This document shows positions 6,859 to 50,427 of a stretch of DNA of 64,000 nucleotides, piece by piece. The translations under genes were made by a program, and so were the position numbers. Position 1 is the first letter of the stretch; the number at the start of each line of letters is the position of its first letter. Origin of the DNA: an uncultured Actinomycetota bacterium (GTDB taxonomy: Bacteria > Actinomycetota > Acidimicrobiia > Acidimicrobiales > Bog-793); NCBI GenBank assembly GCA_963754255.1, contig CAVWEW010000011.1, positions 34,638-98,637 of the forward strand, given 5' to 3'. The notes under the pieces were generated by a model. The model was not told where the DNA came from and did not search any database. It was given only the letters and a program-made list of their open reading frames with translations.

Positions 6859-7551
6859 GTGACGGACGCCCGGGTGCGGCGCATCGACCTCGGTTACTTC
6901 GTGCGGCCGGCCGAGGAGACGGGAACGGGGAGGGCGCGGGTGGAACCCTGCCTCGGCTATCTGATAGATCACCCGGACGGCCTACTGCTGCTCGACACCG
7001 GGATGGGTGCTCACCCGGAAGTCGATGCTCACTACCGGCCACGGCGCCGGCCGCTGCCGGCGGCTGTGGCCGCCGGCGGGGCCACCATCGAGGACGTCCG
7101 CTTCGTCGTGAACTGCCATCTCCACTTCGACCACTGCGGCGGCAACCCCGGTCTCCTAGGCCGGCCCGTCTTCACGCAGAGGATCGAGCTGGAGACGGCC
7201 CGCGACACCCCGGACTACACCCTGCCCGAGCTGATAGACGTCGCCGGCCTCACTTACGAGGTGCTCGACGGCGAGGCCGAGATCCTTCCCGGTGTGCTCG
7301 TCGTGCCCACGCCGGGACATACGGCGGGGCATCAATCCCTCATCGTCCGCCGCAGCGACGGCACGGTCGTGGTGGCCGGCCAGAGCCACTCCTCGGCCTC
7401 CGACTACGGAGCTGACGTCCTTGCCTGGCGCGCCGGGAGGGACGGGCACTCGGCGGATCTGCCTGCGGTACCCGGCTGGATCGAGCGGATTCAACAGCTC
7501 GACCCGGCCCGGGTCCTCTTCGCCCACGACCGTTCTGTGTGGGAACCGTGA
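6859..7551 (+). CDS. MBL-fold metallo-hydrolase, N-acyl-homoserine-lactonase-like
   Basis: HxHxDH motif (NCHLHFDHCGG), a later TPGHTAGH motif and a terminal FAHD. The track ORF starts at 6811; the in-frame GTG at 6859 (VTDARVRRIDLGYF) looks more plausible. Confidence 0.7.
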   Translation: MTDARVRRIDLGYFVRPAEETGTGRARVEPCLGYLIDHPDGLLLLDTGMGAHPEVDAHYRPRRRPLPAAVAAGGATIEDVRFVVNCHLHFDHCGGNPGLLGRPVFTQRIELETARDTPDYTLPELIDVAGLTYEVLDGEAEILPGVLVVPTPGHTAGHQSLIVRRSDGTVVVAGQSHSSASDYGADVLAWRAGRDGHSADLPAVPGWIERIQQLDPARVLFAHDRSVWEP

Positions 7552-7678
7552 GCCCCGGCCGCGGGCCACCGGCCGCTGGGCCAACCGCCACTCACCACTG
7601 AGCCAATCGCCACTGGGCCGCCGCCCGTAAGCCGCCGCCAGTAGTCCGCCGGGCGATCGTAGAGGCCAGACTTGAGCA

Positions 7679-9166
7679 GTGCAGGACGCCGAGCATCTGC
7701 CGTCACCGTGCCTGATCGTTCTCGTCGGCCCTGGAGCCGCGGGCAAATCGGCCTGGGCGGCCGCCCACTTCTCTCCCGACAGCATCGTGTCAAGCGACCG
7801 GCTGCGAGCGGTCGTAGGCGCCGGTGAGGACGACCAGAGCGCCAGTGAGGATGCCTTTGACCTGCTCGAACAGATCGTCGCCCGACGCCTCCGCCGGCGG
7901 TTGACGACGGTGATCGACACGCTCGGCCTCGACGCCGGGCGACGCCGGGGATGGCTGGAGGCATCGAGGCGCGGCGGGATGTGGTGCGTGGCAGTCGTGT
8001 TCGACACGCCGGCGAGGGAGTGCGAACGTCGGAACCGGGACCGCCGGCGGCAGATCCCGGTCGGCGTGCTGGCCGAACAGCTACGCGCCTATGCGAAGAC
8101 GCGGGAGGGGCTCGGTGAGGAGGGCTTCGACGCGGTGCTGGCCGCCGGCCCGGTCCGGGTCGTTCCAGCAGCCTTCGTACCGGCGCCGGCATGGCGGCGG
8201 CGACAGATCGAGCAGCCGGCCGGGCTGCGTTTCGGTCTCCATATCGGGGCGTTCAACTTTGCCGGCGGGCGCCCGGCGACCGCCCAGGCCCTCCGGACCT
8301 TGGCGGCAGCGGCCGAGTCCGCCGGCTTCGACGCCGTCTACGTCATGGACCACTTCCGGCAGATCCCGCAGATCGACCGGCCCTTCGCCGACTTTCTGGA
8401 GAGCTACACCACCCTCGCCTACCTGGCTGCCTGCACCGAGCGCGTCCGCCTCGGCGCCCTCGTCACCGGGGTCACATACCGGAACCCGGCCCACCTGGCG
8501 AAGATCGTTGCCTCGCTCGACGTGTTGAGCGGCGGGCGGGCAGTGTGCGGGATCGGCCTGGCCTGGTTCCGGGAGGAGCACCTCGCCTACGGCTGGGCAT
8601 TCCCTCCCGTAGCGGAACGATACGAGCTCCTCGAGGACACTTTGCAGCTGCTCCCTCTGCTGTGGGGCCCCGGCAGCCCTTCATTCGAAGGCCGGCGGAT
8701 CTCGGTGCCGGAGGCGATGTGCTACCCGCGGCCGTTGCAGGAGCACGTGCCGATCGTCCTCGGCGGCGGCGGGGAGCGCCGGACGCTCCGACTCGCCGCC
8801 CGGTACGCCGACGCGGCCAACGTCTTCGGGGACGCGGCCACGGTGCGGCACAAGGCTCTCGTGCTGCGGACGCACTGCGAGGCCGAGGGACGCGACCCGA
8901 GCCTCGTGGCGCTCTCGCATCTGTCGACCGTGCTCGTTGGTTCAAACGACAGTCACGTCTCGGAGCTGCTCGAGCGGCACCGCCCTTCGCGACGCGACGC
9001 CGCCCGTTTTGCGGTCGAGGTGAACGCCGGCACCGTCGCCGATCACATCGGGCGCTTCCGCGAGCTCGCCGAAGCCGGCGCCGGCGAGGTCGTCGTGAGA
9101 ATGCCCGACCCACTCGAGCAGAGCTCTATGGATGCCATGGGCCGGGTGATCTCGGCCTTCCGGTAG
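7679..9166 (+). CDS. Fusion protein: N-terminal P-loop kinase (AAA_33 / polynucleotide-kinase-like) + C-terminal LLM-class (luciferase-like, likely F420-dependent) oxidoreductase
   Basis: N-terminal ~165 aa: LIVLVGPGAAGKSAWAAAHF..SSDRLRAVVG..DQSASEDAF...TVIDTLGL..R..W...A....WCVAVVFDTP..ECERRNRDR. The remainder is LRFGLHIGAFN...FDAVYVMDHF...TTLAYLAACTERVRLGALVTGVTYRNPAHLAKIVASLDVLSGGRAVCGIGLAWFREEH, which is typical of LLM TIM-barrel proteins. Confidence 0.8.
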   Translation: MQDAEHLPSPCLIVLVGPGAAGKSAWAAAHFSPDSIVSSDRLRAVVGAGEDDQSASEDAFDLLEQIVARRLRRRLTTVIDTLGLDAGRRRGWLEASRRGGMWCVAVVFDTPARECERRNRDRRRQIPVGVLAEQLRAYAKTREGLGEEGFDAVLAAGPVRVVPAAFVPAPAWRRRQIEQPAGLRFGLHIGAFNFAGGRPATAQALRTLAAAAESAGFDAVYVMDHFRQIPQIDRPFADFLESYTTLAYLAACTERVRLGALVTGVTYRNPAHLAKIVASLDVLSGGRAVCGIGLAWFREEHLAYGWAFPPVAERYELLEDTLQLLPLLWGPGSPSFEGRRISVPEAMCYPRPLQEHVPIVLGGGGERRTLRLAARYADAANVFGDAATVRHKALVLRTHCEAEGRDPSLVALSHLSTVLVGSNDSHVSELLERHRPSRRDAARFAVEVNAGTVADHIGRFRELAEAGAGEVVVRMPDPLEQSSMDAMGRVISAFR

Positions 9167-10019: not shown

Positions 10020-13000
10020 CTATGCAGAGACACCCAGCCCGCTCGTCGCCGAGCCGGCAAGGTCGGCACCGCCATCGGAGTTCCCGAGCAAGGCGGCCGC
10101 CCGCTCCAGCAGCGGCTTGGACGGCAGGCGGCCGGCGATGGCCCACGCCTCGGTCGCCAGTTGCCCGGCGCGTTGTTCCTCACCGATCGCCCGACGCCAG
10201 GCTGCATGGTCGAGCAGCGCCCGGGCGACGAAGAAGGGCGCCCCGACCTCGAGCAGGCCCACCACCGCCTGCTCGAAGAGCGGCCCGGGGTCGCTTCCCG
10301 GGATTCCGCTCAACATGCGCGCCTGCGCCCGCAGCCGGTCGGCTCGGAGGAGGCGGGGGACGAGACCGGCGGGAAAGTGGTCGAGCCAGTCGAGGAGCCT
10401 CGATGCCTCGGCCCTGTCGCCGAGATCGAGGGCGGTGTCAACTGCGAGGGACCAGCTCCATCTCACCGGCTCGCTGTTCACCCCGAGCGACTCGACGACT
10501 TCTAGGGCCTGGCAGGCGAACTCGAGGGCGGCTGCCTGATCCCCTCGGCAAGCGGCGGCAACGGCGCGCCCGACGGCCAGCGCACCGAGATCCTGCAGGT
10601 CGTCAGAGTCGGCCAGAGCCTCCAGAGCGACCACAGCAGGCTCGTGCACGGTCCCGTCGCGCCACGCCCGCAGGATCAGGTCGTAGAACGAGTTCGAAGC
10701 GATTGAAGCGAACAGCTCGGCGTCGGGTCCGGAGGACACTTCCTCCACCTCGTCCCACCTGCCGAGCATCATGAGCGCCCCGCAGTAGTTGCCGAGGGCG
10801 ACCGCGAGCACGGCGCTCGAGCCGGCCCGGCGCAGGTCGGCGAGACCGTCGCGTGCGGCCTCGAGGGCCGCCGCCGGGTCGACGCCGGTCATCCCGTCGG
10901 CGAGGTTGAGCAGTGCCCGGCCGGCGGCGAGGTGGTCCTCCCGGCCGCGGGCGAGCCGGGCGGCCTCGCGCAGGCTGGCGGCGGCTTGCCGGACCAGGCC
11001 GCGGACGTGCTCGCCTATGCCGCGGGTCGTGAGCAGATCGGCGAGCACGTCGTCGGGCAGGTCGAGGCTCTGGGCGAGGTAGAGCGCCTCCTCCGCCAGA
11101 GCATCGGCCTCGTCGTCGCCGAGCATGGCGGCCATGATGGCCAGCTGGTGCACCGCGTCGACGGTGTCAGGACCCGGATCTTGCCTCATCACCGTGAGAG
11201 CCTCGAGGACGATCGTCCGGGCCTCGTCGTTGCGCCCGACCCGCCGAAGCGCCCCGGCACCCCCGACAGAGGCGCGGGCGGCGTCGCGTTCCCGCTCCAG
11301 GCGGCGAAAGAGCTCGCCGGCGCAGGAGAAGTGCTCGGCTAGCCACGATGGTATTCGCCCGCCTTGACGGCGGCGCTGCCGGCGCGCTCCCAGAGCCGGG
11401 CGGCGGCGAGATCGTGCTCGCTGCTACCGGACTCCTCTCTCAGAGCCGCCGCTGTCACCATCATCCGCCCAGCCGTGCTCGGCGCCCCCGTTCGATCGGC
11501 GCGCTCGGCGGCCCGGGTGAACGCGGCGATCGCCCGTTCCCGCAACTCGCTCACATCGGGATCGTCCGGGACGGCCGCCATGGCATCGAGCAGGTGGTTG
11601 GCGATCACCTCGCTCACCTCCTCGCCACCGTCGGGGAATGCGAGCGCCAGATGGTCGGACACCGCCAAGTGGCGTGACTTCCGTTCCCGGCGGGACAGGG
11701 TGTCGTAAGCCACCTGGCGGAACATCGTCTGCACGAAGCCGTACTGGCCGCGCTCCGGTGACAGGGCGTCAGCCCGCAGCGAGATCACCTCTCGCCGGGC
11801 GAGCCCGGCGAGCAGGCGCTCGACCTGGTCGCGGGAAAGGCCGCTCACCGCCACGAGGGCCTCGAGCGGGAACGTGCTGCCGATGACGGCGGCGTCGGAG
11901 ACGAGCCGGCGCTCTTCGACCGGCAGGGCATCGAGTCGCGCCGCCAGCAGCGATTGCAGCGTGTCGGGTACGGAGAGCTCGCCGATCTCACCGACCAAGT
12001 GGTAGGACTCGCCGAGCCGCTGGACCACGCCCCGGTCGACCAGCATCCGCACTGTCTCGATGGCGTAGAGAGGAATGCCCTGGGCCTGCTCCGCAATGGC
12101 CGACTTGGCCGCCGAGGGCATCTGAGGAACCAGGCCCTCGAGCACGGCGTCCATGGCCGGATCGCCCAGCGGCTCCAGAGCGAGCGTGGTGCCGTTCCGC
12201 CGGCCGGAGCCCCAGCCGCCCCGGCGCTCGTCGAATTCCGGCCTGGCGAGGGTGAGGACGAAGATGGGCACACCCCGAGCCCGATCAAGCAGGTGATCGA
12301 GAAACTCGAGAAACCCCTCATCGGCGTGCTGCAAGTCCTCCACCAGCAGTACGACCGGCGCTGAGGTGGCGAGCTGCTCGAAGAAGACCCGCCACCCGGC
12401 AAACAGCTCCTCCCGCCCGAGGTCGGCCGCCGGGCGTGCCCACGCCGATCAGGCGGGCGAGCCGGGGAAGCACGTACTCCCTCAGAGTCGCGTCGGGGAC
12501 AAGCTCGACGAGCCCGGCGGCGAGGCGCTCCCCGGCGGCGGAAGGCGGGTCTTCCTCGGCGATGCCAAGGCGTTGGCGGACCATCTCGGCCAGGGCGCCG
12601 AAGGCCACCACGTCGCCGTAGGTGAGGCAGCGCCCCCGGTGCCACCACAGTGTGGCTGCGAGGCCGTCGGCGTACTTCTCGAACTCCCAGCCGAGCCGGG
12701 ACTTCCCCACTCCGGCCGGTCCGCTCACCGCCAGGAGGCGGGGCGACCGTCGATCGACGCAGGCATGGAAGGACTCCTTCAGCATCCGCAGCTCGGCGTC
12801 CCGACCGGAAAGGGGGGCTTCCAGCCCGCCGCGGTGCTGGGCGCCCCCGATGGTCGAGATCACCCGCTCCGCCCGCCACAGCGGCACGGGCTGAGCCTTG
12901 CCCTTCAGCTCGTGCAGCCCGGCATCTGAGAAGGTGATGCCGCTGCGGGCGACGCGCCAGGTGGCGTCGTCGACGAGGACCCGGCCCGGAGGGGCAACGC

Positions 13001-13736
13001 TTTGGATGCGGGAGGCCGTGTTGACCGAGTCGCCGAGCACCATCCCCTCGGCGACCCTGCCCACCGTGACTGCTACCTCACCGGTGACGATGCCGGCGCG
13101 GGCCGCCAGCTCCGGCACGCCCGCCTCCCGACCGAGATCCTCGACCGCCCGTACCACGTCGAGAGCGGCCCTCACCGCCCGCTCCGCGTCTCCCTCGGCG
13201 GCCACCGGTGCTCCCCAGACCGCCATGACCGCGTCGCCGATGAATTTCTCGACGACACCTCCGAAGCGGTTGATCACAGTCTGGGCGGCGTCGAAGTACC
13301 GGGAGAGGAGCTCCCGGATCTCCTCCGGGTCACGTTGCTCGGCGAGCGGCGTGAATCCGACGAGATCAACGAACAGGACCGTGCAGACGCGGCGCTCCGC
13401 CAGCGGGGGCGGGCTGTCGGTTGCCCAAGCGGCCAGGTCGCCGTTGCCTGCGGGGGCGCCGGAGCCGACAGCGGATCGGGCGTCGGGACCGGCCACGCGG
13501 GCTCCGCACCTTCGGCAGAAGGGCCTTCCCTCCGACACCGGCGCACCACAGGACGGGCACGCCTTTCCGACAGGCGTGCCGCAGTTCTCACAGAAGCGGC
13601 TGTCTACGGGCAGCTCCCACCCACACGACGAGCAGCGCACCGATCCCTCCATGTCCCGTCGGGGAGCATAAGCCCGGATTCCGGCTGGCGTGGCCCGCCT
13701 CGGCCCGAGCAACATGGAGCACAGCTGCGAGCCCAT
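10020..13736 (-). pseudogene. Double zinc-ribbon / class III adenylate-guanylate cyclase / AAA (STAND-like) ATPase / TPR-like signalling protein, interrupted by two frameshifts
   Basis: ORF 12318..13736 contains CSSCGWELPVDSRFCENCG..CPSCGAPV..FCRRCG, then cyclase motifs (VLFVDLVGFTPLAE...KFIGDAVMAVWGAP...GDSVNTASR), then a P-loop (VSGPAGVGKSRL). ORF 11339..12343 continues as LLVEDLQHADEGFLEFL.... ORF 10020..11192 is a helical-repeat tail. The frame switches at about 12421-12432 and about 11335-11350. In both cases the downstream frame stays open and homologous across the junction. Confidence 0.8.
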
Positions 13737-13816: not shown

Positions 13817-14671
13817 GTGTCATGGAGCGTGCAGGACCACAGGAGCAGCCGGGAGCTGCCCGTCCGCCCAACCCGCCCCGCCGCCTTGCGCGCCGTGGCG
13901 GAGTCGCCTCAAGACGCCGATCTGCCCACCTTCGTCCTGAGCGGAGGGGGCAACCTCGGCGCTGTGCAGGTGGGAATGATCTATGCCCTCATCGAGAGGG
14001 GAATCCGACCGGGAATGATCGTCGGGACCTCGGTCGGGGCCATCAACGGCGCTTTCCTGGCCAGTCGCGCCAACCTGGGCGGGATTGACGAGATCGCCCG
14101 GTTCTGGGCCTCCCTCCGGCGCCGGGACGTCTTCGGGCTCGGCATCTTCCCCCTTGCCCTGGGGCTGGTCCGGCAACGTCGCTACCTGTTCGACTCGGGG
14201 CCGATGCGGCGAGTCCTCGAGTCCTTCCTCGGCTTTGATCGCCTGGAGGAGGCACCGATCCCCTTCGCCGTTGTGGCGACCGCGCTCGGCACGGGCGAGC
14301 CGGTGCTCCTCGAGTCGGGCGACGCGGTGACTGCCCTGCTCGCCAGCGCGGCGATCCCACGTGTCCTGCCACCTGTCGAGATCGACGGCAGGCTGCTCGT
14401 GGACGGGGCGGCAGCGGCCGACGTGCCGCTCTGCCAAGCGGTCTCGCTCGGGGCGCGCAACCTCTACGTGCTGCCGACCGCTCGGCCACAGGTGGCAAGG
14501 TTGCTCGAGCAGGCACCGGAGCACCGGGCAGCGGAGGCCCCGACTGTTCACGTCCTGAACCCACCGGACGTCTATGTGCCGCGGGGCGACCTCAGCCAGT
14601 CGAGGCGGCTGATCGACCTCGGCTATGTATTGGCGAGCTCGTGGATCGAGGCCGACCTCCGGCGGAACTGA
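13817..14671 (+). CDS. Patatin-like phospholipase family protein
   Basis: GGGNLGAVQVG (oxyanion GGGxxG), GTSVGA (GxSxG) and VDGAAA (DG[AG]) motifs occur in the canonical order. GTG start. It is divergent from the cyclase gene. Confidence 0.8.
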   Translation: MSWSVQDHRSSRELPVRPTRPAALRAVAESPQDADLPTFVLSGGGNLGAVQVGMIYALIERGIRPGMIVGTSVGAINGAFLASRANLGGIDEIARFWASLRRRDVFGLGIFPLALGLVRQRRYLFDSGPMRRVLESFLGFDRLEEAPIPFAVVATALGTGEPVLLESGDAVTALLASAAIPRVLPPVEIDGRLLVDGAAAADVPLCQAVSLGARNLYVLPTARPQVARLLEQAPEHRAAEAPTVHVLNPPDVYVPRGDLSQSRRLIDLGYVLASSWIEADLRRN

Positions 14672-14681
14672 TCTCGGCTCC

Positions 14682-15038
14682 TCAGGGTGACTTTGCTGTG
14701 GTCGCCGAAGGACGGCGGCGTTCCGCCTGCACGCCTCGAGCGCTGCCAGGAGAATGATCCTGGCGGCTGTTGCCCAAGAGGCTGAGCACGTCGCCGATGG
14801 CGCCTTGCCGGGCGTTCGGCTCCGGCAGCGGCAGGTGGTCGAGAATCTCGTACCGGTTGCGGCGACCCTGCCTGGACTTGACGACGTAGCCGGCGGTCGT
14901 CAGGTCGACGACGATGCCGTAAGCCCGCCGCTCGGTGATCCCGAGCTCGGCGGCGATGTCGCGCAGGCGTGCCTCCGGGTCTCGGGCGAGGCAGAGCAGC
15001 GCCCGGCCGTGGTTGGTGAGGAAGCTCCAGTTCGCCAC
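14682..15038 (-). CDS. Winged-helix (MarR/ArsR-like) transcriptional regulator
   Basis: 118 aa: WSFLTNHGRALLCLARDPEARLRDIAAELGITERRAYGIVVDLTTAGYVVKSRQGRRNRYEI. It is divergent from the surface-protein/sortase pair. Confidence 0.7.
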   Translation of the reverse strand: MANWSFLTNHGRALLCLARDPEARLRDIAAELGITERRAYGIVVDLTTAGYVVKSRQGRRNRYEILDHLPLPEPNARQGAIGDVLSLLGNSRQDHSPGSARGVQAERRRPSATTAKSP

Positions 15039-15070
15039 GGGAGACAGACTACTCGCTCTAGGCAGGCTTT

Positions 15071-15115
15071 CTGGAACTAAATAACTGGTAATTGGTAACT
15101 AGCTACATATATCGG
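15071..15115. promoter_or_regulatory. AT-rich divergent promoter region with direct heptamer repeat TGGTAAT-TGGTAAC
   Basis: The sequence ctggaactaaataactggtaattggtaactagctacatatat is strikingly AT-rich for this window. It lies between the regulator (14682..15038, minus strand) and the surface-protein gene (15178, plus strand). Any function is inferred only. Confidence 0.3.
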
Positions 15116-15177
15116 GTGTAGCGTGGAGCATCCGGCCGTGATCAAGAGCCGAGGGTCGTTTTTTTGAAGGAGCGGTC

Positions 15178-16224
15178 ATGCGGGTTAGGCGTGGAAGTCT
15201 GTCCGGGCGGTTCGCCCGGCTTCACATCCGAGGCGTGCTGGCTGTGACGCTCTCGTTGTTGACCGGAGCCTCCATGTTGCTAATGGGTGGGCTCATCCAG
15301 ATGCCACAGGCCTCGGCCGCGCCCGGTGCGCCGCCTATCAACCAGTGCAACCCGCCGGCCTTTCCCACCGGGGCCGGGGAACAGGTGAGCTGCACTGTCA
15401 GCGTCCAGAACAACATCAGCTCCTCGGGCGCCCGCAGCTCGGTGACCACGATCACGGCGTGCCTGGCGGCCGCCGGCGTGCTGCCGCCGGCAGGCTGTGT
15501 CACCACCATCGAAAGATCGATGACGGGACTCGTGAGCTCGGTCAACCAGTGCAACGGCGTCGTCAACGGTGGCGGCAGCAACGTGATCTGTAGCGTCTCG
15601 GTCGAGAACACCGTTCCGACGGGCACCACCACCTCGGGCGTCACCGTCAACGAGTGCATCGGGTCGGGCCAGGGTGGGGGCGGTACCGGCACCGTCGTGT
15701 GCAATCCGACCTCGAGCACGTCTGGTGCCACGGTCACCCAATGCAACGGCTCAGGTAACAACGGGGGCTCACCGGGACGGGTCAATTGCACAGTTGCAGG
15801 CGGAGTAATGGCTTTCCCGGTGACCATCAACCAGTGCAACGGTTCCTCCAACGGCGGCGGGAGCACCGTGATCTGCAGGACCACGGTCACCAACAGCTTC
15901 ATCACCGCCCCGACGACGACGACGACCACCACCACGACGCCAGTGTCGAAGAAGCCGAAGGGTCACCATTCCGGTAGCACCCCTGGGAGTGGCAACACCC
16001 CTGGGAGCGGCAACACTCCCGGCAGTGGCAACACGGGCAGCGGCACCCACACGAACAGCCCGGCGGTCGTGCCGAAGGGCGCACCGCAGACCGGCCTCGG
16101 CGGGGCCTCCCATTCTGACAATGGTCCTCTCGTTGCCTTCGGTGCTCTGGCCCTGCTCGGCGCCGGCTTGGCGATGGTCCAGGCCACTCGCCGCCGGGTG
16201 AGGCCCCTGGACACGAGGGAGTGA
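15178..16224 (+). CDS. Secreted, sortase-anchored surface protein with six CX12-16C Gly-rich loops, a Thr9 linker and (GSGNTP)3 repeats
   Basis: It has a signal peptide (..LIQMPQASA|AP). The repeat motif is [IV]NQCNG..GGGS.V.C.V.V.N (INQCNPPAFPTGAGEQVSC, VNQCNGVVNGGGSNVIC, VNECIGSGQGGGGTGTVVC, TQCNGSGNNGGSPGRVNC, INQCNGSSNGGGSTVIC). The C-terminal sorting signal is GAPQTG, followed by a hydrophobic helix (PLVAFGALALLGAGLAMV) and RRRVR. A GTGA overlap links it to the sortase gene. Confidence 0.75.
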   Translation: MRVRRGSLSGRFARLHIRGVLAVTLSLLTGASMLLMGGLIQMPQASAAPGAPPINQCNPPAFPTGAGEQVSCTVSVQNNISSSGARSSVTTITACLAAAGVLPPAGCVTTIERSMTGLVSSVNQCNGVVNGGGSNVICSVSVENTVPTGTTTSGVTVNECIGSGQGGGGTGTVVCNPTSSTSGATVTQCNGSGNNGGSPGRVNCTVAGGVMAFPVTINQCNGSSNGGGSTVICRTTVTNSFITAPTTTTTTTTTPVSKKPKGHHSGSTPGSGNTPGSGNTPGSGNTGSGTHTNSPAVVPKGAPQTGLGGASHSDNGPLVAFGALALLGAGLAMVQATRRRVRPLDTRE

Positions 16225-16931
16225 GCGGGCGCCAACCCCGCTGGACTCTTACCATCAGGTCGAGACGCTGGTTCGCTCTCGCGGCGGCCCTCGTTCTCCT
16301 CGGGTCGGGGGCTCTCGCGGTGGGGTTGCGCCAGCACCAGCACCCATTGGCCGGACCGGCGACGTCGTCCAGCTCGACAGCGACCGGTCCATCCGAACCG
16401 CCAGCGACCGGGACTACCAACACTGGGATCGCCCGCTCCCGGCCGGTCAGGCTGCGGATACCTGCCATCGGCGTATCGGTCTCCGTCTCGGAACTCGGGC
16501 TCAATCCGGACGGCACCGTCGAGGTGCCGACCGACATCCAAAAGCCCGGGTGGTTCGACCTGGGGCCCACTCCGGGGCAGGAGGGGTCGGCGGTCATCCT
16601 CGGGCACGTCGACTCGTACCAGGGCCCGGCGGTCTTCTTCCGGCTGCGGGCAATGAAGGCGGGTGATCGTGTCGATGTGCGGTTGGCAGACGGCGTGACG
16701 ACGCGGTTCGTCGTCCGATCCGTGGTCATGTACTCGAAAGCGCATTTCCCGGGTCGCCTGGTGTACGCATCGCACGGGTACAGCGGACTGCAGCTCGTGA
16801 CTTGTGGGGGCACCTTCGACAGCCAGACGGGCCATTACCTGTCCAACGTGGTCGTTTTCACCTCGCTCGTCACGTCCAGCCGCACCGCTGCCACGGCAGC
16901 CGACAGCAATGCGGCCATGTCGGCATCCTGA
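16221..16931 (+). CDS. Class F sortase
   Basis: N-terminal TM helix, then PVRLRIPAIGVSVSV..LG...DGTVEVP...PGWF..GPTPGQEGSAVILGHVD...GDRV...LQLVTCGG. This is the typical class F layout with its catalytic His and Cys motifs. Confidence 0.85.
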   Translation: MSGRQPRWTLTIRSRRWFALAAALVLLGSGALAVGLRQHQHPLAGPATSSSSTATGPSEPPATGTTNTGIARSRPVRLRIPAIGVSVSVSELGLNPDGTVEVPTDIQKPGWFDLGPTPGQEGSAVILGHVDSYQGPAVFFRLRAMKAGDRVDVRLADGVTTRFVVRSVVMYSKAHFPGRLVYASHGYSGLQLVTCGGTFDSQTGHYLSNVVVFTSLVTSSRTAATAADSNAAMSAS

Positions 16932-16944
16932 GCAGGATCTCCGG

Positions 16945-19012
16945 TCAGGTGGCCGGGGGCACCTGGGAAGCCATGACCATGGGGGCTCTCTCCCAGGCGC
17001 GGTGCAAGCCCACGGCAGCAATCAGCGCATCGCTTAACGACTTCCCGGCCGACCGCCCGGTCACCACGCCGGGCGAGTCGAGGTCGATTGATGACGCTTG
17101 GAGGATCGCAGTGCCGCTCCCCCAGGCGCCGACAGCCTTGCAGTGCCGGTAGGCCTCCTGAAGCAACAGCACCAGCTTGATGTCGGCGCCGGCTTCAACT
17201 CCGTCTGCCACGACGACGGCGTCGAGCTCGATCGAGCGGACCGTGAGCAACGTTCTCTCGACGATCTCCTGGTCGGTGCCGTCGGAGAGGACCCCACCTG
17301 TCGGGGCGATGACGTGGAGCTTGGCTCCGCCCTTCTCGATGGCGCTTCGTAGCTTTCCTATGCCGGAGAGGTCGGCCGCGGCGTCGGCGAAGACTCCAAT
17401 CTTGCGACCGGCGATCGGACCAGGTTCGAGGATGATCTGCGACAGCGCTCCCGACACGATCACGTCCTCAGCTGGGCTACCGCTCGGTGCGGGAAGGCCC
17501 AACCCGGCTGCCACCTGCCGCGCACAGGTCCGCGTCGACGTTCGCCAGCACTGCCAGTTCTCGTTCCCTGATGACCTGCTCGTAGCATTTCCCGAGCTCG
17601 AAAGTGAACGCCTCCACTATGTGTCGCTGTTCGAGGGGACTCAAGCTTCGGTAGAAGAGCGTCGCCTGGCTGAAATGATCCTCGAACGAAGTCGGGTTGG
17701 CGCGGACCGCTGTGCCCTCGATGACGCGGGGCGTCTGCACGTAGCCCCCCTCATCAGCCAGCGCCGGCAGCGGGCCACCATCGTCGATGCTGTTGGGTCG
17801 ATACGGAGCCAAACCGGTATGGATGGCGGTCTGGTGCATGCCATCTCTCAGCATGTCGTTCACCGGGCAGTGAGGGCGGTTGATCGGCAGCTGGGCGAAA
17901 TTCGGTCCCCCCAATCTGGTGATCTGGGTGTCGAGGTAGGAGAACAGTCGCGCCTGCATCAACGGGTCGTTGGTCACCTCTATGCCGGGCACCAGGTGCC
18001 CGATGTGGAAGGCGACCTGTTCAGTCTCTGCGAAATAGTTCGTCGGGTTGCGGTTCAAGGTGAGCTTCCCGATCAGCTGGACAGGTACGAGCTCCTCTGG
18101 CACGAGCTTGGTCGGGTCGAGCAGGTCGATTCCCTCAAAGCTGTCGGTCCCATCGTCCGGCATCACCTGGATGCCGAACTCGTACTCGAGGAAGGCACCG
18201 GCCTCGATGCCGTCGGCCATGTCCCGGCGGTGGAAGTCCGGGTCTACGCCGGCGGCGATCTGAGCCTCTTCCCACACGAGCGAGTGCACGCCGGCGAGGG
18301 GCTTCCAATGGAACTTCACCAGGCTCGACTCGTCTCGCGAGTTGACCAGCCTAAAGGTATGTACGCCGAAACCCTCCATCGTCCGGAACGACCGCGGGAT
18401 GCCGCGGTCACTCATGTTCCACATCACGTGGTGAGTGGCCTCGGTGTGCAGGGAGACAAAGTCCCAGAACGTGTCATGGGCCGACTGAGCTTGTGGAATC
18501 TCCCGGTCCGGATGGGGCTTGGCGGCATGGATGACGTCGGGGAACTTGATGCCGTCCTGGATGAAGAAGACCGGCATGTTGTTACCCACGAGGTCGAACA
18601 CGCCCTCTTCGGTATAGAACTTGACCGCGAAGCCGCGGGTGTCCCGGACCGTGTCAGCAGAGCCACGCGAGCCGAGCACGGTCGAGAAGCGGACGAACAC
18701 CTCGGTCTTCCGACCTTTCTGGAGGAAGCCCGCCTTTGTGACGGACGACGCCGTCCCATAAGACTCGAACACTCCGTGGGCCGCCGCACCGCGAGCGTGC
18801 ACCACCCTCTCCGGGATCCGCTCGTGGTCGAAGTGGGTGATCTTTTCTCGCAGGTGGAAGTCCTCGAGCAGCGTGGGCCCCCGGGTGCCTGCCTTGAGGG
18901 AATGATCGGTATCGGGCAGGCGCACACCTTGCGCAGTGGTCAGGTACTCGCCGGCCTGAGCCCTCGGGTCGAGGTCGCCCGGCTCACCTTCGAGCACACC
19001 CGTGGGGCTCAT
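16945..19012 (-). pseudogene. katE: Large-subunit (HPII-type) catalase, split between the catalase core and the C-terminal DJ-1/PfpI-like domain by a 1-nt indel near 17515-17522
   Basis: ORF 17477..19126 carries catalase motifs ([45 protein letters not shown]) and ends ...[22 protein letters not shown] 16945..17514 ([13 protein letters not shown]...GRKIGVFADAAADL...HVIAP) is the flavodoxin/DJ-1-like tail. Deleting one g in tgcgcGgcaggtg gives ...[13 protein letters not shown]. The start was chosen at the Met of [10 protein letters not shown] (19012); upstream Mets also exist. Confidence 0.85.
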
Positions 19013-19195
19013 GCGCAACGGTGCAGTCTGGTCCCGATGACGTCGTGGAGGCATCGCAACTCCCATGTGGTTTCTCGTGCGGAGGCGATGGTCTTCACCT
19101 GCTGGAGGAGCATAGCGAGCGCCCAATGTGCAGAATCACCAGGCTTGTACTGGGATTGGCGCCACCGGCGGATTCGATTGCAGCAGTGCCTGAGA

Positions 19196-19891
19196 TCAGG
19201 GCATCTCCCCGCTGTCGACAAGCTGCTGGGCGATCAGGCAGAGCTGGCGGTTGTTCCTCTGCGAAGACTGCGCCAGCATCGCGAAGGCCTGATCGGGCGT
19301 GATGCGGTGCCGCTCCATCAGTATGCCCTTGCCCATCCCGATGAGGTCCCGGTTCGAGGCCGCCACCCTCAACTGTTCAGTGCGTCGAGCGTCCGCGAGC
19401 GCCAACGCAGCGTGGGTGGCGAGGAGACGCGCCAGCCGCTCGTGACGGACGCCGAAGGCGTGGCGCACGGTGGCGTACAAGCTGAGCGATCCGACCTGCG
19501 TGTCGTCCACCCACAACGGGACGCACAACATGCTCCGCACGCCCAGAGTCGCCGCCAGCTCCGCGTAGGCAGGCCAGCGTTGCTCCTCCTCCATCGCCTC
19601 GATACGCACGCTCACCTGGTCCCGCGACGCGTCTATGCAAGGTCCCTGTGAGGTCTCCTGCTGAAAGGTGTCGAGGGCAGGCGGTGCTTCCCACACGGTG
19701 GCCTGCGGGGTGAACCGGCCGCGGATGAGCAGGTTCACGCCGGCATAGGAGGCGCCGTCGATCGTGTCGAGCGCGCAGCCGACGATGGCGCCCACTGTTG
19801 CACCGAGGTCCGCTTCTTTGACGTGAAGTGCTCGGCCGAGCCGCTCCAGAGCCGTCAAACTCAAGTCGTCGACTGTCTCGAACACGTCCAT
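19196..19891 (-). CDS. GAF and ANTAR domain-containing RNA-binding regulator
   Basis: This is the C-terminal 231 aa of track ORF 19196..20485. It has a GAF-like core (..SYAGVNLLIRGRF...SMLCVPLWVDDTQVGSLSLYA) followed by an ANTAR helix pair (LRVAASNRDLIGMGKGILMERHRITPDQAFAMLAQSSQRNNRQL). The start at ATG 19891 is provisional; an upstream Met near 20062 is possible. Confidence 0.75.
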   Translation of the reverse strand: MDVFETVDDLSLTALERLGRALHVKEADLGATVGAIVGCALDTIDGASYAGVNLLIRGRFTPQATVWEAPPALDTFQQETSQGPCIDASRDQVSVRIEAMEEEQRWPAYAELAATLGVRSMLCVPLWVDDTQVGSLSLYATVRHAFGVRHERLARLLATHAALALADARRTEQLRVAASNRDLIGMGKGILMERHRITPDQAFAMLAQSSQRNNRQLCLIAQQLVDSGEMP

Positions 19892-20213
19892 CTGCAGCCC
19901 GAGCAACCCCACCCCTCCACCCCCGTCGACTGGAACCACCGCCGGCGGAATGTTCCCTGTGGCCACGGGGGCGAAACAACGGGTTCCGGGCGGACCGGCC
20001 CCGCTGCGGCGGCTCCGGCCGCTGTCGCGGCCGCTCAGGTCACCGCCATCTGCTCTCAGCATTCGCAACGCCGGGGTGAGATGAGGAGACGGCGCAGCCG
20101 CGGGGCCAACAGTTGGCTGCCTACGGCGCGTTTGGTGGGTGTTGAGGTGGGTATGCGGAGTCCACATTCGTGAGGAACAGGAAGGCGGAATCGTGCACGA
20201 AGAAGGAAGCGGC

Positions 20214-21236
20214 ATGGCCACCCCACAGGACGCCCCGAAGGCTGATCTCGGCAGTTCACGGAATTCCCTCAGCCGGCGCCACGTCTTGATGCTCGGAGGC
20301 GCGGCCGCAGGCGGGGCCTTGGTGGCTGCTACTCCGCTGGCCTCAGGCCTGGCATCGGCCTCTACAACTGACACGCGACATGTCCAGGGAGCAGACGCCG
20401 GAAAGTCGCCGGCAGACCTCCCGACAAAGGAGATCGAGAGAATCGTCCGGGCGCAGGGCACGTTCAGCAACGGCGTGCTGAACATCGAGATTGACAGGGA
20501 CGACCTTCCTCACGTGACGAAGGAGGGCCACGTCATCAAGCCGGCCTTCATGATCAACGGCAACCTCTGCTTCGAGCAACTGCGCGACGGCTCGGTGATG
20601 ATGAACGGAGACCTTGCCTTCAAGCCCGAGGAGATCGACGGCTCGATCGCCCAGATGGTCAGGCACGGCATCACCTGGCAGGCCCTCCACCAGCATCTAT
20701 ACGGCCTCAACCCGATGGTCTACTTCATGCACATGCGAATCCGGGGCAGCGCCCGCAAGTCCGCGGAGGCCTGTGCGGCAGTCTTGAGCGCCACGTCGAC
20801 ACCACTGCCTCAGGCGCCGCCGAAGAACCCGACCACCCCGCTCGATCCGAAGAGACTCGGTTCGATAATCGGCTCTACCCCGACCGTGGGCGCCTCGGGT
20901 GTGGTCAGCTTCAGCCTTCCTCCGCGTGAGCAGATCATGCTGGGCGGGGTGGCGATCAACCCGTACCTGAACGTCTACACGTCAGTCGACTTCCAACCCC
21001 TCGGGGGCAACCGGGCTATCTGTGTTCCCGACTTCGGTCAGCGCTGGTACGAAGTCGACCCGTTGGCCAAGACCATGCTGGCGCAGGGCTGGCAGATCGA
21101 CTGCCTTTACAACCAGGAGACCGACGAGCAGCCGCAACTCTTCTTCTCCCACGACTACAAGGTGGGGGACGCCTACGAGCTCGCCAAAGAGGTGAGGCGC
21201 GGCCTCGACAAGCTCGACCTGGTGCTCGACAACTAG
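20214..21236 (+). CDS. Tat-exported DUF1259 (LppY/LpqO-like) protein
   Basis: Twin-arginine signal (SRRHVLMLGGAAAGGALVAA). The body resembles DUF1259 as I remember it (GVLNIEIDRDDL...INGNLCFEQL..., QALHQHLYGLNPMVYFMHMRG, a second half-domain repeat). The ATG at 20214 is in frame with track ORF 20139..21236. Confidence 0.65.
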   Translation: MATPQDAPKADLGSSRNSLSRRHVLMLGGAAAGGALVAATPLASGLASASTTDTRHVQGADAGKSPADLPTKEIERIVRAQGTFSNGVLNIEIDRDDLPHVTKEGHVIKPAFMINGNLCFEQLRDGSVMMNGDLAFKPEEIDGSIAQMVRHGITWQALHQHLYGLNPMVYFMHMRIRGSARKSAEACAAVLSATSTPLPQAPPKNPTTPLDPKRLGSIIGSTPTVGASGVVSFSLPPREQIMLGGVAINPYLNVYTSVDFQPLGGNRAICVPDFGQRWYEVDPLAKTMLAQGWQIDCLYNQETDEQPQLFFSHDYKVGDAYELAKEVRRGLDKLDLVLDN

Positions 21237-47320: not shown

Positions 47321-47446
47321 TAGCCGTCACACATAGAACTACCCGTAGCCGAACACAAGGCCGATCGGCCACCCGCTGGTCGATCTCGGCTACCAACTCG
47401 GCTCTGGTCGCCGGCCGATCGGGTGTACGGCCGCGCCACGCAAGCC

Positions 47447-48391
47447 CTAGCTCATTCCGAGGAAGCGACAGGCGTTGCCGTACAACCACTTTTCCTTGAC
47501 TGCGTCCTTCAGAGGCAGCGCGAGATACTCCTCGATGGCCTCTTCCATGGTCATGCCGAGGAGCGTCCAAGAGAGAGCTACCATGATCTTGTCCTGAAGA
47601 AGTGTATTGCCGAATTGCAAAAACTGCTCCCAACCGGAGCCCCTCGTGGCGAAGTGCCGGGGCCGGTGCGCGGCGGTATCGCAATACAGGTTGGGATGAC
47701 GACGTAGTAGCCCAACCATCTCGCTCACCCACGGCCAACCTGCGAGTCCTGCGATCATCCGCAGCTCCGGGAAGTCAATTGCGACTCGATCGAGCTCTCT
47801 CGGATGACCAAGATCGTAAGGTCGATCGTTGGCGTACGTCATCGCGGTGTAAATTCGCACGGGAATGTCGAGCTCGACACATTTGGCATAGAGCGGGTAG
47901 TACCGGGCGTCGCCGGCTCTCACCTGATCATAGAGCGACGCGACGCTGAGGCCGGAGAAGCCCTCCTCGCGGACCAGCCGCTCGAGTTCGCGCACAGCCC
48001 TCATGCCGTCGAACGCACTCAGGTGGGCGAAGCCTAGGACCCGCGAGGGAAACAATCGGATGACCTCGCTGGTGATGGCGTTAGAACCGGTGGACAACAC
48101 GCACTTCGTGACGTTCGCCTTGTCCATGAGACTGACCATCTCCGCGGCACGTTCGGCGATGGGCCTCGTATCCTCGTCAACCTCGCCACGGGAGGAGAAG
48201 ATCGTCGAGTAGTTCGGGAAGCCATATCCCTCCGGCATGGGCAACCGGTCAGGCCCTGCCGGCCCTACCACCTCCACGTACGGTGAAGGGGTTCGCCCAG
48301 GCAGATACCCTTCCAAGTCGAAGACTTGCATGCCCAATCCTCCCGTCATATCAATACTCTCGAAGATGCTCGCCCCGTCAGCCACGAGCAC
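47447..48391 (-). CDS. Amidohydrolase-2 (TIM-barrel) family protein, apparently without the usual metal ligands
   Basis: It is colinear with PF04909-type proteins as I remember them (..LMDKANVTKCVLS...FPSRVLGFAHL...YYPLYAKCVELDIPV...FPELRMIAG.AGWPW...HPNLYCDT...NACRFLG). The start may be the internal Met at 48331 (MQVFDLEGY). Confidence 0.65.
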   Translation of the reverse strand: MLVADGASIFESIDMTGGLGMQVFDLEGYLPGRTPSPYVEVVGPAGPDRLPMPEGYGFPNYSTIFSSRGEVDEDTRPIAERAAEMVSLMDKANVTKCVLSTGSNAITSEVIRLFPSRVLGFAHLSAFDGMRAVRELERLVREEGFSGLSVASLYDQVRAGDARYYPLYAKCVELDIPVRIYTAMTYANDRPYDLGHPRELDRVAIDFPELRMIAGLAGWPWVSEMVGLLRRHPNLYCDTAAHRPRHFATRGSGWEQFLQFGNTLLQDKIMVALSWTLLGMTMEEAIEEYLALPLKDAVKEKWLYGNACRFLGMS

Positions 48392-48435
48392 GGGCCGTCG
48401 CTAGCAACGGTCGCGACGACGTTCCCTCAGCAAAA

Positions 48436-50427
48436 TCAGGACTTCGTGAAGTACCAGAGCTGCGGAGTGATGTTGCCTGCCACCGGGTTCTGAGGCAGCG
48501 TGCCATGGAGGTTGACCTTGATGACTGAAGTCTGGTTGTAGATCATCGGAATCCACAAGTTCGGATTTATCTGCTCCAGGTAGCGCTCGTACGAATAGAG
48601 TGCGCTAGTCGCCTGAGAGCCCGGCACTGTGCGCACCTTCTGGATCAGCTTGTCCACCGTGGAGGAGTATGGGGCGGTGCCTTCGTAGAGCGCGGCCCCT
48701 GTGCCGAAGGCCGCTCCACCATCCGGATAGGGACCGGGCGCAAAGTAGTAGCCGACCTCGTAGTCGATGAGCCCCCACTTGCACGCGCTACCCGGCTTGC
48801 ATGGCGCCAGCGTGGCACCGATCCCATTATTCGTGAGCCCTACGAGCGTCCACTTGATCCCGGCCGAAGTCATGGAGGACTCAATCGCCTGCATCATGTC
48901 GTCGATCTCCGGGAACCCGGTGGGTTCGATAGCCGTGAGCGCGAGCGGCATGCCCCTCGAGATCCCGGCGCCACACTTGGCCGGGTCGGCACACCTGGTG
49001 GTTCCGTTGGGAACTACGTTCCAACCGTGGCTCTTTAGGAGACTGATCGCCTTACTTGGGTCATAGGGATATGTTGCCTGCTTCTCTGATGGACCCGCGA
49101 AACTAGTCAGTGGTTTGTTTGGCACCGGACCGTACGTTGGATAGGCATAGCCATGGTAGATACTTTTTACGAGCAGGGGCTGGTTTATCAGTGACTGCAT
49201 GGCGACGCGGACGTACTGCTGCTTCATGAATGGAGCAGAAGAAGGATTAGTGTAATTGACATACAAGTAGTTGATACCCCAAATCGGCCACGGGGCGGCC
49301 TGGTAGCCCTTCTGCTCAAGTCTCGGAAGCTCTGGCGTGTTGGTAGCAGCCACGTATCCGTAGTCGACACTTCCGGTGAGCACGGCGTCGTTCTCTGCGG
49401 CCGAACTCGTGAATGGCAGCTCCACGAGTTTAGCGATGTGGGGCTTGGGGCCGAAGTACCTGGGATTCGGCACAAAGGTGAAGCGGCCAGTGGGCGTATT
49501 CGCGGTCAGGCGGAAGGCGCCGTCGACGACCTTCCACAGAGCGTTGGTCGAATAGGTCGCTGTGTTCTTCGACTGCGAGTTCAGGAAGTTGTAGACAGAG
49601 TGAGCCCCGACTGTCGTCCGGTCAAAATTGCCGACAGACCCCGACATCGAGGTGCGATCCCAACTGTGTTGCGGGATCGGGGTGATCTCGCTCAACGCCG
49701 TGTAAGTAAACCACTGGGGGTTGAAAGAAGCTGTGAGATGCAGAACGATCGTGTGCGAATTGGGATAGGCTGCGCTTGAGACATCGTCCGGGAATGTGCC
49801 GGGAACATAGGGTCCGTAGTTCGCCTTGTTCGCCTTCAGCAGGTTGATCCAGAACTCGACGTCGCGAGATGTGATCGGCGCCCCATCCGACCACGTCATC
49901 CCTGACCTGAGGTGGATCGTGACGGTTCGGTCGTTGTCGGTGTAGGCGGGTGCGCTGGCAAGGCTCAGCGCCGGGTTGATGTCTAGAGAGTTCCCCTTGC
50001 CGAACCAGTAGAGCGGCGGATACAGGAGGTTCTCAAGCAGAGCCGTGTTGTTATTCGAGTAGTACGCCAAGGAATACAGCGGGAAGATGTACACGGGTGC
50101 CGCGCCCGGTTCCTCGGCGAAGGTCACCGTCCCACCTGAGACTGGGGTCCCGCCGGTAGCGGACGTCGGTCGGGTGCTGCTGCAGGCGGCCAAGAGCAGG
50201 CTCAGCGCGCCCACCAGCGCCGCGACGGTGGCCCCGAGTACGGCGCGACCTTCGCGTTGCTCGCGCGATCGCAAGAGCGGAACGAGATGCGTGACTGTGC
50301 CCGGTAGGACCCATCTACTCTGTCCCCTCCTGCCTGATGGCTGCAGGAGCAGGCGCTGGCTCACTGGACTCCACGAGAAGCCGTCCGAGCGCCGGCTGCA
50401 CGCTTGTCCGACCGCTGGCCATAGCAC
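48436..50427 (-). CDS. Family-5 ABC substrate-binding lipoprotein (second copy)
   Basis: It has a lipobox (SLLLAACSST) and an SBP_bac_5-like body. The track start (50427) adds about 50 implausible residues. A TTG at 50274 would give MRSREQREGRAVLGATVAALVGALSLLLAAC. GC content is noticeably lower than its surroundings. Confidence 0.8.
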   Translation of the reverse strand: MLWPAVGQACSRRSDGFSWSPVSQRLLLQPSGRRGQSRWVLPGTVTHLVPLLRSREQREGRAVLGATVAALVGALSLLLAACSSTRPTSATGGTPVSGGTVTFAEEPGAAPVYIFPLYSLAYYSNNNTALLENLLYPPLYWFGKGNSLDINPALSLASAPAYTDNDRTVTIHLRSGMTWSDGAPITSRDVEFWINLLKANKANYGPYVPGTFPDDVSSAAYPNSHTIVLHLTASFNPQWFTYTALSEITPIPQHSWDRTSMSGSVGNFDRTTVGAHSVYNFLNSQSKNTATYSTNALWKVVDGAFRLTANTPTGRFTFVPNPRYFGPKPHIAKLVELPFTSSAAENDAVLTGSVDYGYVAATNTPELPRLEQKGYQAAPWPIWGINYLYVNYTNPSSAPFMKQQYVRVAMQSLINQPLLVKSIYHGYAYPTYGPVPNKPLTSFAGPSEKQATYPYDPSKAISLLKSHGWNVVPNGTTRCADPAKCGAGISRGMPLALTAIEPTGFPEIDDMMQAIESSMTSAGIKWTLVGLTNNGIGATLAPCKPGSACKWGLIDYEVGYYFAPGPYPDGGAAFGTGAALYEGTAPYSSTVDKLIQKVRTVPGSQATSALYSYERYLEQINPNLWIPMIYNQTSVIKVNLHGTLPQNPVAGNITPQLWYFTKS

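Follow-up and report, generated by a model that had tools for sequence, protein, structure and literature searches.

A class F sortase and an overlapping DUF8253 gene form a candidate surface-display cassette with an APQTG signal in an uncultured Acidimicrobiales bacterium

Introduction

The SrtB-IsdC pair of Staphylococcus aureus is an example of a dedicated sortase, with the signal NPQTN. We describe here a locus from an uncultured Actinomycetota bacterium (Acidimicrobiia, Acidimicrobiales, Bog-793) in which the gene of a class F sortase overlaps that of a predicted surface protein, the cargo, which has a DUF8253 domain and the C-terminal signal APQTG. The locus lies in a stretch of 64,000 nucleotides, called the window throughout (GenBank assembly GCA_963754255.1, contig CAVWEW010000011.1, positions 34,638 to 98,637). 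We put the probability at about 75% that the two genes, together with that of a small divergent regulator, form a self-contained surface-display cassette around a cognate class F sortase and a dedicated DUF8253 cargo.

The class B sortase of C. difficile, SrtB, uses signals of the [SP]PxTG type, SPQTG among them (PMC4155245, PMC5569036), and the Pro-Gln-Thr-Gly core thus has a precedent among sortases. A literature search for APQTG and SPQTG returned, in a sortase context, solely C. difficile SrtB. Like the enzyme of the window, the SrtB proteins of S. aureus and C. difficile are specialised sortases with a non-LPXTG signal that has a Pro-x-Thr core. They differ in that they are class B enzymes of Firmicutes, whereas the window enzyme is class F, has Asn in the slot of the catalytic Arg, and has a signal with G-x-G-G after Thr-Gly. 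The class E sortases with LAXTG signals (SrtE1/E2 of Streptomyces with the chaplins, and SrtE of A. missouriensis) share with the window system an actinobacterial host and small hydrophobic or neutral, Cys-containing surface proteins. The window motif, in contrast, does not start with Leu-Ala and comes with its own class F sortase. A homology of the cargo to chaplins was considered and dropped, as the Pfam scan gave no match to a chaplin domain.

Among the uncharacterised sortase classes of actinobacteria, class F is the largest. A review describes both the function and the structure of the class as unknown (PMC11231552), and the roles, substrates and structure of its enzymes are stated to be unknown in reviews and in a 2026 genetic study (PMC8225981, PMC11231552, PMC13251363). 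In the latter, deletion of all four srtF genes of A. missouriensis gave no phenotype (PMC13251363). Two proteins encoded next to srtF1 and srtF4, AMIS_11010 and AMIS_36440, have a signal peptide, a transmembrane (TM) helix and a basic tail with no known pentapeptide, and were proposed in that study as possible SrtF substrates (PMC13251363). Judged by the published description, they resemble the cargo described here: they are secreted, have no assigned function, end in a TM helix and a basic tail, and adjoin class F sortase genes. They differ in that no motif was proposed for them (PMC13251363).

The Sortase, the Cargo and the Sorting Signal

The two genes and the parts of the sorting signal are as follows.

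15178-16224, plus strand: cargo (DUF8253) gene, 348 aa, from the open reading frame (ORF) call
16221-16931, plus strand: class F sortase gene, 236 aa, from the ORF call
16066-16224, plus strand: sorting-signal region of the cargo, VVPK-G-APQTG-LGGASHS followed by the TM segment and RRRVR
16081-16095, plus strand: APQTG, residues 302-306, after G301 and followed by LGG
16126-16188, same gene: hydrophobic/TM segment, residues 317-337 (21 residues)
16189-16203, same gene: basic tail RRRVR, residues 338-342

A first-pass annotation, made from the letters of the window alone, had noted that the two genes overlap by GTGA. This is confirmed at the nucleotide level: the GTG start codon of the sortase gene is at 16221-16223 and the TGA stop codon of the cargo gene at 16222-16224, and the same 4-bp overlap recurs in most related loci. 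No second sortase or sorting-signal protein was found elsewhere in the 64-kb window.

The class F assignment made in the same annotation is borne out by the NCBIfam model NF033748, which gives the window sortase 174.7 bits (cutoff 166); class GN, the runner-up model, reaches 21.4 bits. The sortase domain model PF04203 matches residues 78-217 with 74.4 bits (cutoff 26.6). A search of 1.84 billion representative proteins yielded 12,733 class F clusters at 50% identity. The main elements of the enzyme are the following.

Residues ~27-46: N-terminal membrane anchor WFALAAALVLLGSGALAVGL, placed by sequence inspection, after a basic stretch and conserved in relatives
16605-16607: catalytic His129, in ILGHVDS
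16803-16805: catalytic Cys195, in LVTCGG (LQLVTCGG)

H129 and C195 are invariant in an alignment of 13 sortases that includes two divergent types.

The peptide stretch of the window signal reads ...VVPKGAPQTGLGGAS... The cargo has a tripartite C-terminus, in which a short motif with Thr-Gly at its end precedes a hydrophobic segment and then a basic tail, and so do about 110 of 120 homologues examined. These come from a search of 5.8 billion protein clusters, which returned at least 580 relatives of the cargo at E <= 1e-3. The pentapeptide is APQTG in 54 of the 120, SPQTG in 18 (the sequence used by C. difficile SrtB), SPETG in 15 and GAQTG in 6. Its first position is Ala, Ser, Gly or Pro and never Leu, and [LFM]GGA[SA] always follows it directly. 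Over 42 homologues, P299, G301, T305, G306, G308, G309 and R338-340 are invariant or nearly so. The LPXTG anchor model PF00746 (Gram_pos_anchor) did not match the window cargo at E <= 1, and two homologues gave E values of 0.11-0.42. The initial description of the C-terminus as GAPQTG with a hydrophobic helix and RRRVR, matching no canonical signal, holds, and the signal is conserved among the homologues. A related curated family is NF058571 (GVDTG_CTERM, "GVDTG sorting domain"), which 39 of the 42 homologues match at E <= 0.01 (best E 9.8e-9). A literature search for GVDTG-type motifs and for NF058571 found no publication, only unrelated papers.

Signal Type and Sortase Type across Related Loci

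To compare DUF8253 loci, one genome per GTDB species was scanned. This gave 421 loci, and the best 79 were analysed. They are mostly from metagenome-assembled genomes (MAGs) of Acidimicrobiaceae and other Acidimicrobiales from peat, palsa, bog and Danish soils, and a second, more distant group belongs to Microbacteriaceae (Clavibacter, Cryobacterium, Subtercola and Glaciihabitans). The window proteins, together with two additional sortases discovered in the course of the comparison, served as queries against the ORFs of the 79 loci. The following tabulation, by signal and by the sortase immediately downstream, takes in the loci whose sequence extends 800 nt or more past the cargo gene.

G[ASGP][PA]xTGxGG: window-type class F sortase adjacent in 34/36, usually with the same 4-bp overlap
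Canonical L[AP]xTG (LAFTG, LALTG, LPVTG, LASTG and others): adjacent sortase in 0/18
DS[KR]TDG (Cryobacterium): a divergent sortase in 4/4, with 27-35 bits to PF04203 and 25-29 bits to the class F model
PSHTGEPW (three Acidimicrobiales MAGs): a third sortase type in 3/3, with 60 bits to PF04203

The type of signal therefore tracks the type of the adjacent sortase, which is why we read the signal as a private address for the adjacent enzyme; the comparative evidence for such a role, drawn from sequences, is strong. That the pairing should be kept in related genomes was the check proposed with the first-pass annotation. It is kept, and it co-varies with the signal type, which also supports the suggestion that the overlapping upstream gene encodes the cognate substrate. 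In about 1 Mb of fetched flanking sequence, all 39 of the ORFs with an xxxTG-x-GG motif, a TM segment and a basic tail encode DUF8253 proteins (39/39). A rough neighbour-joining tree of the domain, calculated with no bootstrap, finds members with L[AP]xTG and no sortase in at least four distinct places within the xPQTG clade. Because these places are scattered, the association of sortase and signal was probably made and broken repeatedly and not just inherited. The DUF8253 paralogues that have LAFTG, LALTG or LASTG and no adjacent sortase presumably use the class E housekeeping route (PMC8225981, PMC13251363).

The two rarer signals have distinct sequences. In four Cryobacterium loci (L068, L072, L075 and L079) the DUF8253 signal has the form ...NVLHDSKTDGFG... 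ahead of a TM helix and RKADARR. In the three Acidimicrobiales MAGs (L011, L021 and L038) it reads ...VPPSHTGEPWAGWPYW... before a TM helix and RRRRA. Neither the NVLHDSKTDGFG type nor the VPPSHTGEPWAGWPYW type was matched by any NCBIfam sorting-domain model. The best class model for the sortase linked to PSHTGEPW is D/E-like, at a score far below the cutoff.

The locus thus supplies an explicit candidate motif and a candidate substrate for class F. It also amounts to a natural specificity experiment, with one cargo domain and four C-terminal addresses, each of which goes with a particular sortase type or with no sortase. Because of the explicit motif and the four natural addresses, class F specificity can be tested directly with a few peptides and enzymes, and new orthogonal sortase/tag pairs for protein ligation could follow. 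DUF8253 and GVDTG_CTERM are already catalogued by database curators. The DUF8253 cargo, a pentapeptide that escapes the curated model, and the mapping of four addresses on one domain to sortase type are new here. A literature search found no paper that links DUF8253 with GVDTG_CTERM or describes the pair.

Other Class F Loci

Relatives of a class F sortase that is 45% identical to the window enzyme were sampled, and six of their loci (L081-L086) were fetched.

L081, Pengzhenrongella (sicca): ice-binding-like cargo (NF045625), ending VPSGGVSTGDGS, TM segment, RRNRRA
L082, Cellulomonas (fengjieae): ice-binding-like cargo (PF11999), ending VPRGGIAAGDGS, TM segment, RARRRQRG
L083, Blastococcus (capsensis): CHRD-like cargo (faint match), ending MPSGGVDAGGGA, TM segment, RRRTAR; 29.7 bits to the GVDTG model, which passes the cutoff
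L084, Modestobacter sp.: cargo with no Pfam match and an N-terminus that is ice-binding-like by eye, ending VPVGSVDTGDGS
L085, relative from a JGI metagenome: cargo like that of L084 (no Pfam match, N-terminus ice-binding-like by eye), ending VPVGSVDTGDGS
L086, ENA metagenome contig: no cargo gene upstream

In five of the six loci a gene for a secreted protein lies immediately upstream of the sortase gene and often overlaps it. The five cargos end in PxG[GS][VI][DSA][TA]G[DG]G[SA] (general form PxGxxx[T/A]GxG[G/S]), which in three of them is followed by a TM segment and a basic tail. The genes of L084 and L085 stop about 12 residues after VDTGDGS, with neither TM helix nor basic tail. The sortases of L081-L083, the three that were scored, are class F with 190-200 bits. 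Since five of the six loci are alike, the layout of a sortase with an upstream cargo is general, and the window holds its DUF8253/APQTG version. The case is accordingly less singular than was first thought, as class F sortases elsewhere show this layout with different cargos.

The GVDTG proteins encoded next to class F sortases, such as that of L083, share with the window cargo the pattern P-x-G-x-x-x-[T/A]-G-x-G-[G/S], the TM helix, the Arg-rich tail and the position of the gene upstream of the sortase gene. They differ in the pentapeptide, which is GVDTG, GVSTG or GIAAG there and APQTG in the window, with Pro as in LPXTG (position 3 in our count). The domains differ as well: ice-binding-like (DUF3494) or CHRD-like in the GVDTG-type cargos and DUF8253 in the window.

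Proposed Function and Points against It

We propose the following course of events for the cassette. The cargo and sortase genes would be co-transcribed and translationally coupled through the GTGA overlap, and the divergently encoded winged helix-turn-helix (wHTH) protein probably controls the shared AT-rich promoter/operator. The cargo would be exported by the Sec route, and its uncharged, all-beta DUF8253 domain would fold outside the cell, probably with six short-range disulfides as staples. The TM helix and Arg tail at the C-terminus would hold the precursor in the membrane, and the stalk rich in Thr, Pro, Gly and Ser would span the wall. The membrane-anchored sortase (His129/Cys195) would recognise P-x-G-[AS]-P-[QE]-T-G-x-G-G, most likely cleave after Thr305 to form the acyl-enzyme at this residue, and then transfer the cargo to a cell-wall precursor. 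The class F enzyme would be dedicated to this one cargo, and housekeeping sortases for L[AP]xTG would not be expected to use the signal.

Several observations weigh against this model. The cleavage, the acceptor and the wall linkage are all steps that we infer. The C-terminus of the window cargo aligns to NF058571 over its whole length (1-44 of 44) with 24.1 bits, which is below the curated cutoff of 29, and ten homologues scored singly gave 17.1-28.9 bits, none reaching 29. Going by its sequence, the window signal is best taken as a relative of NF058571 and not as a member by the curated threshold. Two loci with xPQTG signals, L001 and L003, have no adjacent sortase; L001 shares a contig with L004, which does have the sortase. 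Furthermore, MAGs of a single order contribute most of the loci, and shared ancestry accounts for part of the count of 34/36.

The active site raises a further difficulty. Model sortases have the catalytic Arg about 13 residues beyond the Cys, where the last strand begins. In this slot, at Cys+14, the window enzyme has Asn209 (16845-16847, in YLSNVVVF), and no Arg after the catalytic Cys is conserved in the 13 aligned sortases. To see how widespread this is, the 150 best class F representatives (P0141-P0290) were inspected; 143 of them could be scored, and the residue is Asn in 132 of these, within the motif TCGG.FD......Y..N.VV. The replacement of the canonical Arg is therefore a trait of the whole class. 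The L011-type sortase has Arg in this slot (PDRLVV). The chemistry of class F may differ from that of the model sortases, or an Arg may be supplied from elsewhere in the fold. A single-sequence search found no class F structure in the PDB, and the weak profile alignments with sortases of solved structure (classes C and A) end at the Cys. Finally, the sole characterised enzyme named class F, SrtF of C. acnes, uses LPXTG (LPQTGE) (PMC8225981, PMC7451113). It shares with the window enzyme an actinobacterial host and the class name. It differs in being the sole housekeeping sortase of its host (PMC8225981, PMC7451113) and in the sequence around the catalytic Cys, which is AIVICWDYVK, as taken from a mutagenic primer (PMC7451113), compared with LVTCGG.FD in the NF033748 family. 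Because it is a housekeeping enzyme, uses LPXTG and has a different Cys motif, it is possibly a poor model for the enzyme described here.

As a side observation, L003 contains two copies of an xPQTG cargo gene about 6 kb apart (1061-2218 and 7297-8146) on one MAG contig, with no sortase gene between them. The second copy runs off the edge of the locus, and its translation is identical to that of the first over the part inside. This doubling could be a real duplication or an assembly artefact.

Alternative Explanations

The sortase might instead be a processing or release protease that clips at TG-xGG and either sheds the cargo or passes it to an acceptor other than peptidoglycan. We regard this as the most serious rival because of the Asn in place of Arg in 132 of 143 class F representatives and because of the Modestobacter-type cargos, which end about 12 residues past VDTGDGS with no TM helix and do not fit retention followed by transfer. 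The quadruple srtF mutant of A. missouriensis, which had no phenotype (PMC13251363), can be added on this side. However, the catalytic His and Cys are conserved, the full tripartite signal of the window family matches that of wall-anchored proteins, and the long Thr/Pro/Gly stalk fits a segment that spans the wall. On balance, release or transfer to another acceptor appears unlikely, and anchoring by a cognate sortase is preferred.

If, on the other hand, the cargo were merely a tail-anchored surface protein, with the sortase serving distant substrates and the adjacency a matter of operonic convenience, the strict P-x-G-x-P-x-T-G-x-G-G block before the TM helix would be needless. The distribution of the sortase argues in the same direction: 34 of 36 loci with xPQTG-GG have it, as against none of 18 with L[AP]xTG on the same domain, and each of the two remaining unusual signals has a sortase of its own next to it (7/7 loci). 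What speaks for a plain tail anchor is that the signal lacks the Leu of LPXTG and LAXTG and has no PF00746 match, and that the authors of the A. missouriensis study excluded comparable neighbours as substrates for want of a motif (PMC13251363). We consider this explanation quite improbable, and retain the cognate sortase and cargo as the better account.

A pilus-type (class C-like) polymerase that joins DUF8253 subunits head to tail through a Lys isopeptide is very improbable and was rejected, since the mature domain (about residues 48-246) has no Lys, the few Lys of the stalk are not conserved, each locus has one cargo gene and no tip or base pilin genes, and the class C model scores 15.9 bits or less in relatives and is not listed for the window enzyme, even though the closest solved relatives by profile are class C sortases (weak, E 5e-8) and operons of a dedicated sortase with its substrate are typical of pili.

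The DUF8253 Domain and the Stalk

The remainder of the cargo is divided as follows.

15178-15318, plus strand: Sec-type signal peptide, residues 1-47, ending QASA|AP, read from the sequence
15319-15912, plus strand: DUF8253 (PF26781) domain, residues 48-245 (about 199 residues), 12 Cys, all-beta
15913-16065, plus strand: low-complexity stalk with Thr9, KKPKGHH and GSGNTP repeats

The signal peptide has a basic n-region, hydrophobic residues 19-39 and an AxA motif, and AlphaFold2 (AF2) predicts a helix at residues 9-38. This composition suggests cleavage at QASA|AP.

The 12 Cys of the cargo form six local pairs (57/72, 95/107, 125/138, 160/175, 189/204 and 220/233) with 14, 11, 12, 14, 14 and 12 residues between their members. 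The first-pass annotation had counted the Cys and the pairs correctly; its spacing of CX12-16C has to be changed to CX11-14C. It also assigned an NQC motif to every loop, and [IV][NT][QE]C opens five of the six, the second (C95-C107) having a different sequence. In alignments of 42 and of 121 homologues, 11 of the 12 Cys are invariant, and C107 shifts in one subclade. This invariance is not due to chance. The domain of the window cargo contains no K, D, H, W or Y, and about 64% of it is G, T, V, S or N.

A model of the domain alone, predicted with AF2 from 121 sequences, has 12 strands and no helix (pLDDT 74.3, pTM 0.76); the model of the full-length cargo from 42 sequences is poor (pLDDT 58.8). 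Foldseek against the PDB found no solved structural relative of the domain (best E 0.24, TM-score <=0.24). The best hit in a profile search of PDB sequences with the cargo was a type IV pilin (E 0.062), which we take as chance.

The first-pass annotation did not recognise the Cys-loop repeat as a named domain. By strong indirect evidence, it belongs to the Pfam family PF26781 (DUF8253), which has no function attached. The assignment is made through the precomputed labels of homologues: PF26781 is given for 120 of 120 relatives among the matches listed (46-73% identity, E down to 4e-152), and it is named DUF8253 in the gene table of a syntenic relative, L080 (protein P0001, 73% identical). A scan of the cargo and eight homologues with a local copy of Pfam that predates PF26781 gave no useful match. 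A literature search for PF26781 found no structure, no function and no link to sortases.

The Thr9 run of the stalk, residues 246-254, is as first described. The reported (GSGNTP)3 is in fact two full GSGNTP units and GSGNTG, encoded by an 18-nt tandem repeat. Tandem Repeats Finder locates a repeat of period 3 at 15911-15939 and one of period 18 with 3.2 copies at 15978-16034. The length of the stalk differs among relatives, in which it is rich in P, T, G, S and A. It may span the wall or be glycosylated.

Our best guess for the role of the cargo is a neutral coat or an adhesin-like surface layer. A broader proposal, which we find doubtful, would join the two halves of the system. In it, class F is a mechanistically separate branch of one-enzyme/one-cargo sortases that read P-x-G-x-x-x-[T/A]-G-x-G-G with Asn in place of Arg, and DUF8253, built of stapled beta-hairpins, is a neutral coat with a Thr/Ser/Asn face in actinobacteria of peat and cold soils, maybe akin to the ice-binding-like (DUF3494) cargos of Cellulomonas, Pengzhenrongella and Modestobacter.

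The Regulator, the Array and the Leader

The region upstream of the cargo gene contains three features.

14682-15038, minus strand: wHTH regulator gene, 118 aa, from the ORF call
15071-15102: operator/promoter-like array CTGG-N10-CTGG-N10-CTAG, containing TGGTAAT/TGGTAAC at 15086-15099
15108-15177, plus strand: 5' leader, with the ribosome-binding site GAAGGAG at 15166-15172

The wHTH protein has weak Pfam matches to TrmB (24.2 bits), HTH_IclR (23.3) and MarR_2 (19.7), and a conserved N-terminal NWSFLTNHG. The divergent regulator upstream of the cargo gene, noted in the first reading of the sequence, is confirmed and conserved: at least 31 of the 37 xPQTG loci have a homologue in the same divergent position. 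Homologues are also present at three L[AP]xTG loci that have no sortase (L039, L049 and L061); the regulator gene thus follows the cargo gene.

The intergenic region between regulator and cargo is the second-lowest spot in GC content of the window, with a minimum of 0.37 against a mean of 0.669 over the 64 kb. The array CT[AG]G-N10-CT[AGT]G-N10-CT[AG]G, with a 14-bp spacing, occurs in strict form in 11 of 38 leader regions and in near form in 6 more; 0.005 are expected in shuffled sequences. Its consensus in relatives is CTAGAAAT-NN-ATTGCTAG-N10-CTAGAGTA. The promoter had been described as AT-rich with a direct repeat TGGTAAT-TGGTAAC. The AT-richness holds and both heptamers exist; as a direct repeat they are not kept in L080, and they are part of the array instead. 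The array may be bound by the wHTH regulator. A scan of 14950-17100 for sigma-70 promoters and terminators found nothing.

Over its final ~70 nt the leader hardly differs between the window and L080, the cargo proteins of which are 73% identical. The window leader folds no better than shuffled sequences (z -0.27), and that of L080 does (z -3.8). A terminator or attenuator (hairpin and U-run) in the window leader was considered and dropped in view of the weak stem and the fold z of -0.27. The leaders of five loci matched no family in Rfam.

A hairpin is found in the 5' leader of 26 loci among L002-L060, about 10 nt before the ribosome-binding site of the DUF8253 gene (in L028, about 75 nt upstream of the cargo start); it is not present in the window. 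It has the form CCYCGRA-CGT-CCGTC-loop-GACGG-TKGTYTAT-TYCGRGG, and 94% of the cells in the alignment are paired, compared with 27-62% in slid controls. Five of the seven pairs of the outer helix have changed on both sides, and the observed covariation was reached in 0 of 500 shuffles. From these sequence comparisons, the hairpin, which matches no family in Rfam, is a candidate for a new cis-regulatory RNA motif.

Genomic Context

The cassette is flanked by genes for a patatin-like phospholipase (13817-14671, plus strand), a catalase (17477-19126, minus strand) and a GAF-ANTAR regulator (19196-20485, minus strand). We found no functional link between the cassette and these three neighbours. The closest relative, L080, is a JGI metagenome contig, and its cargo is the one that is 73% identical to that of the window. 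The gene order zinc-ribbon/cyclase/AAA16, patatin, wHTH, DUF8253, sortase is common to both.

The zinc-ribbon/adenylate-cyclase/AAA16 gene of the window (11339-13736, minus strand) consists of two overlapping ORFs in different frames (12318-13736 and 11339-12343). Its counterpart in L080 encodes one protein of 1204 aa, and a frameshift, pseudogene formation or a sequencing error could explain the split in the window.

The lowest GC content of the window (0.35-0.42) is at 47441-49311. Within and around it lie genes for the permease of an ABC peptide transporter, an amidohydrolase and a family-5 solute-binding protein. These are ordinary genes, and the idea that the stretch has some particular significance was dropped. 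A tRNA-Ser(CGA) gene lies nearby, at 50881-50966.

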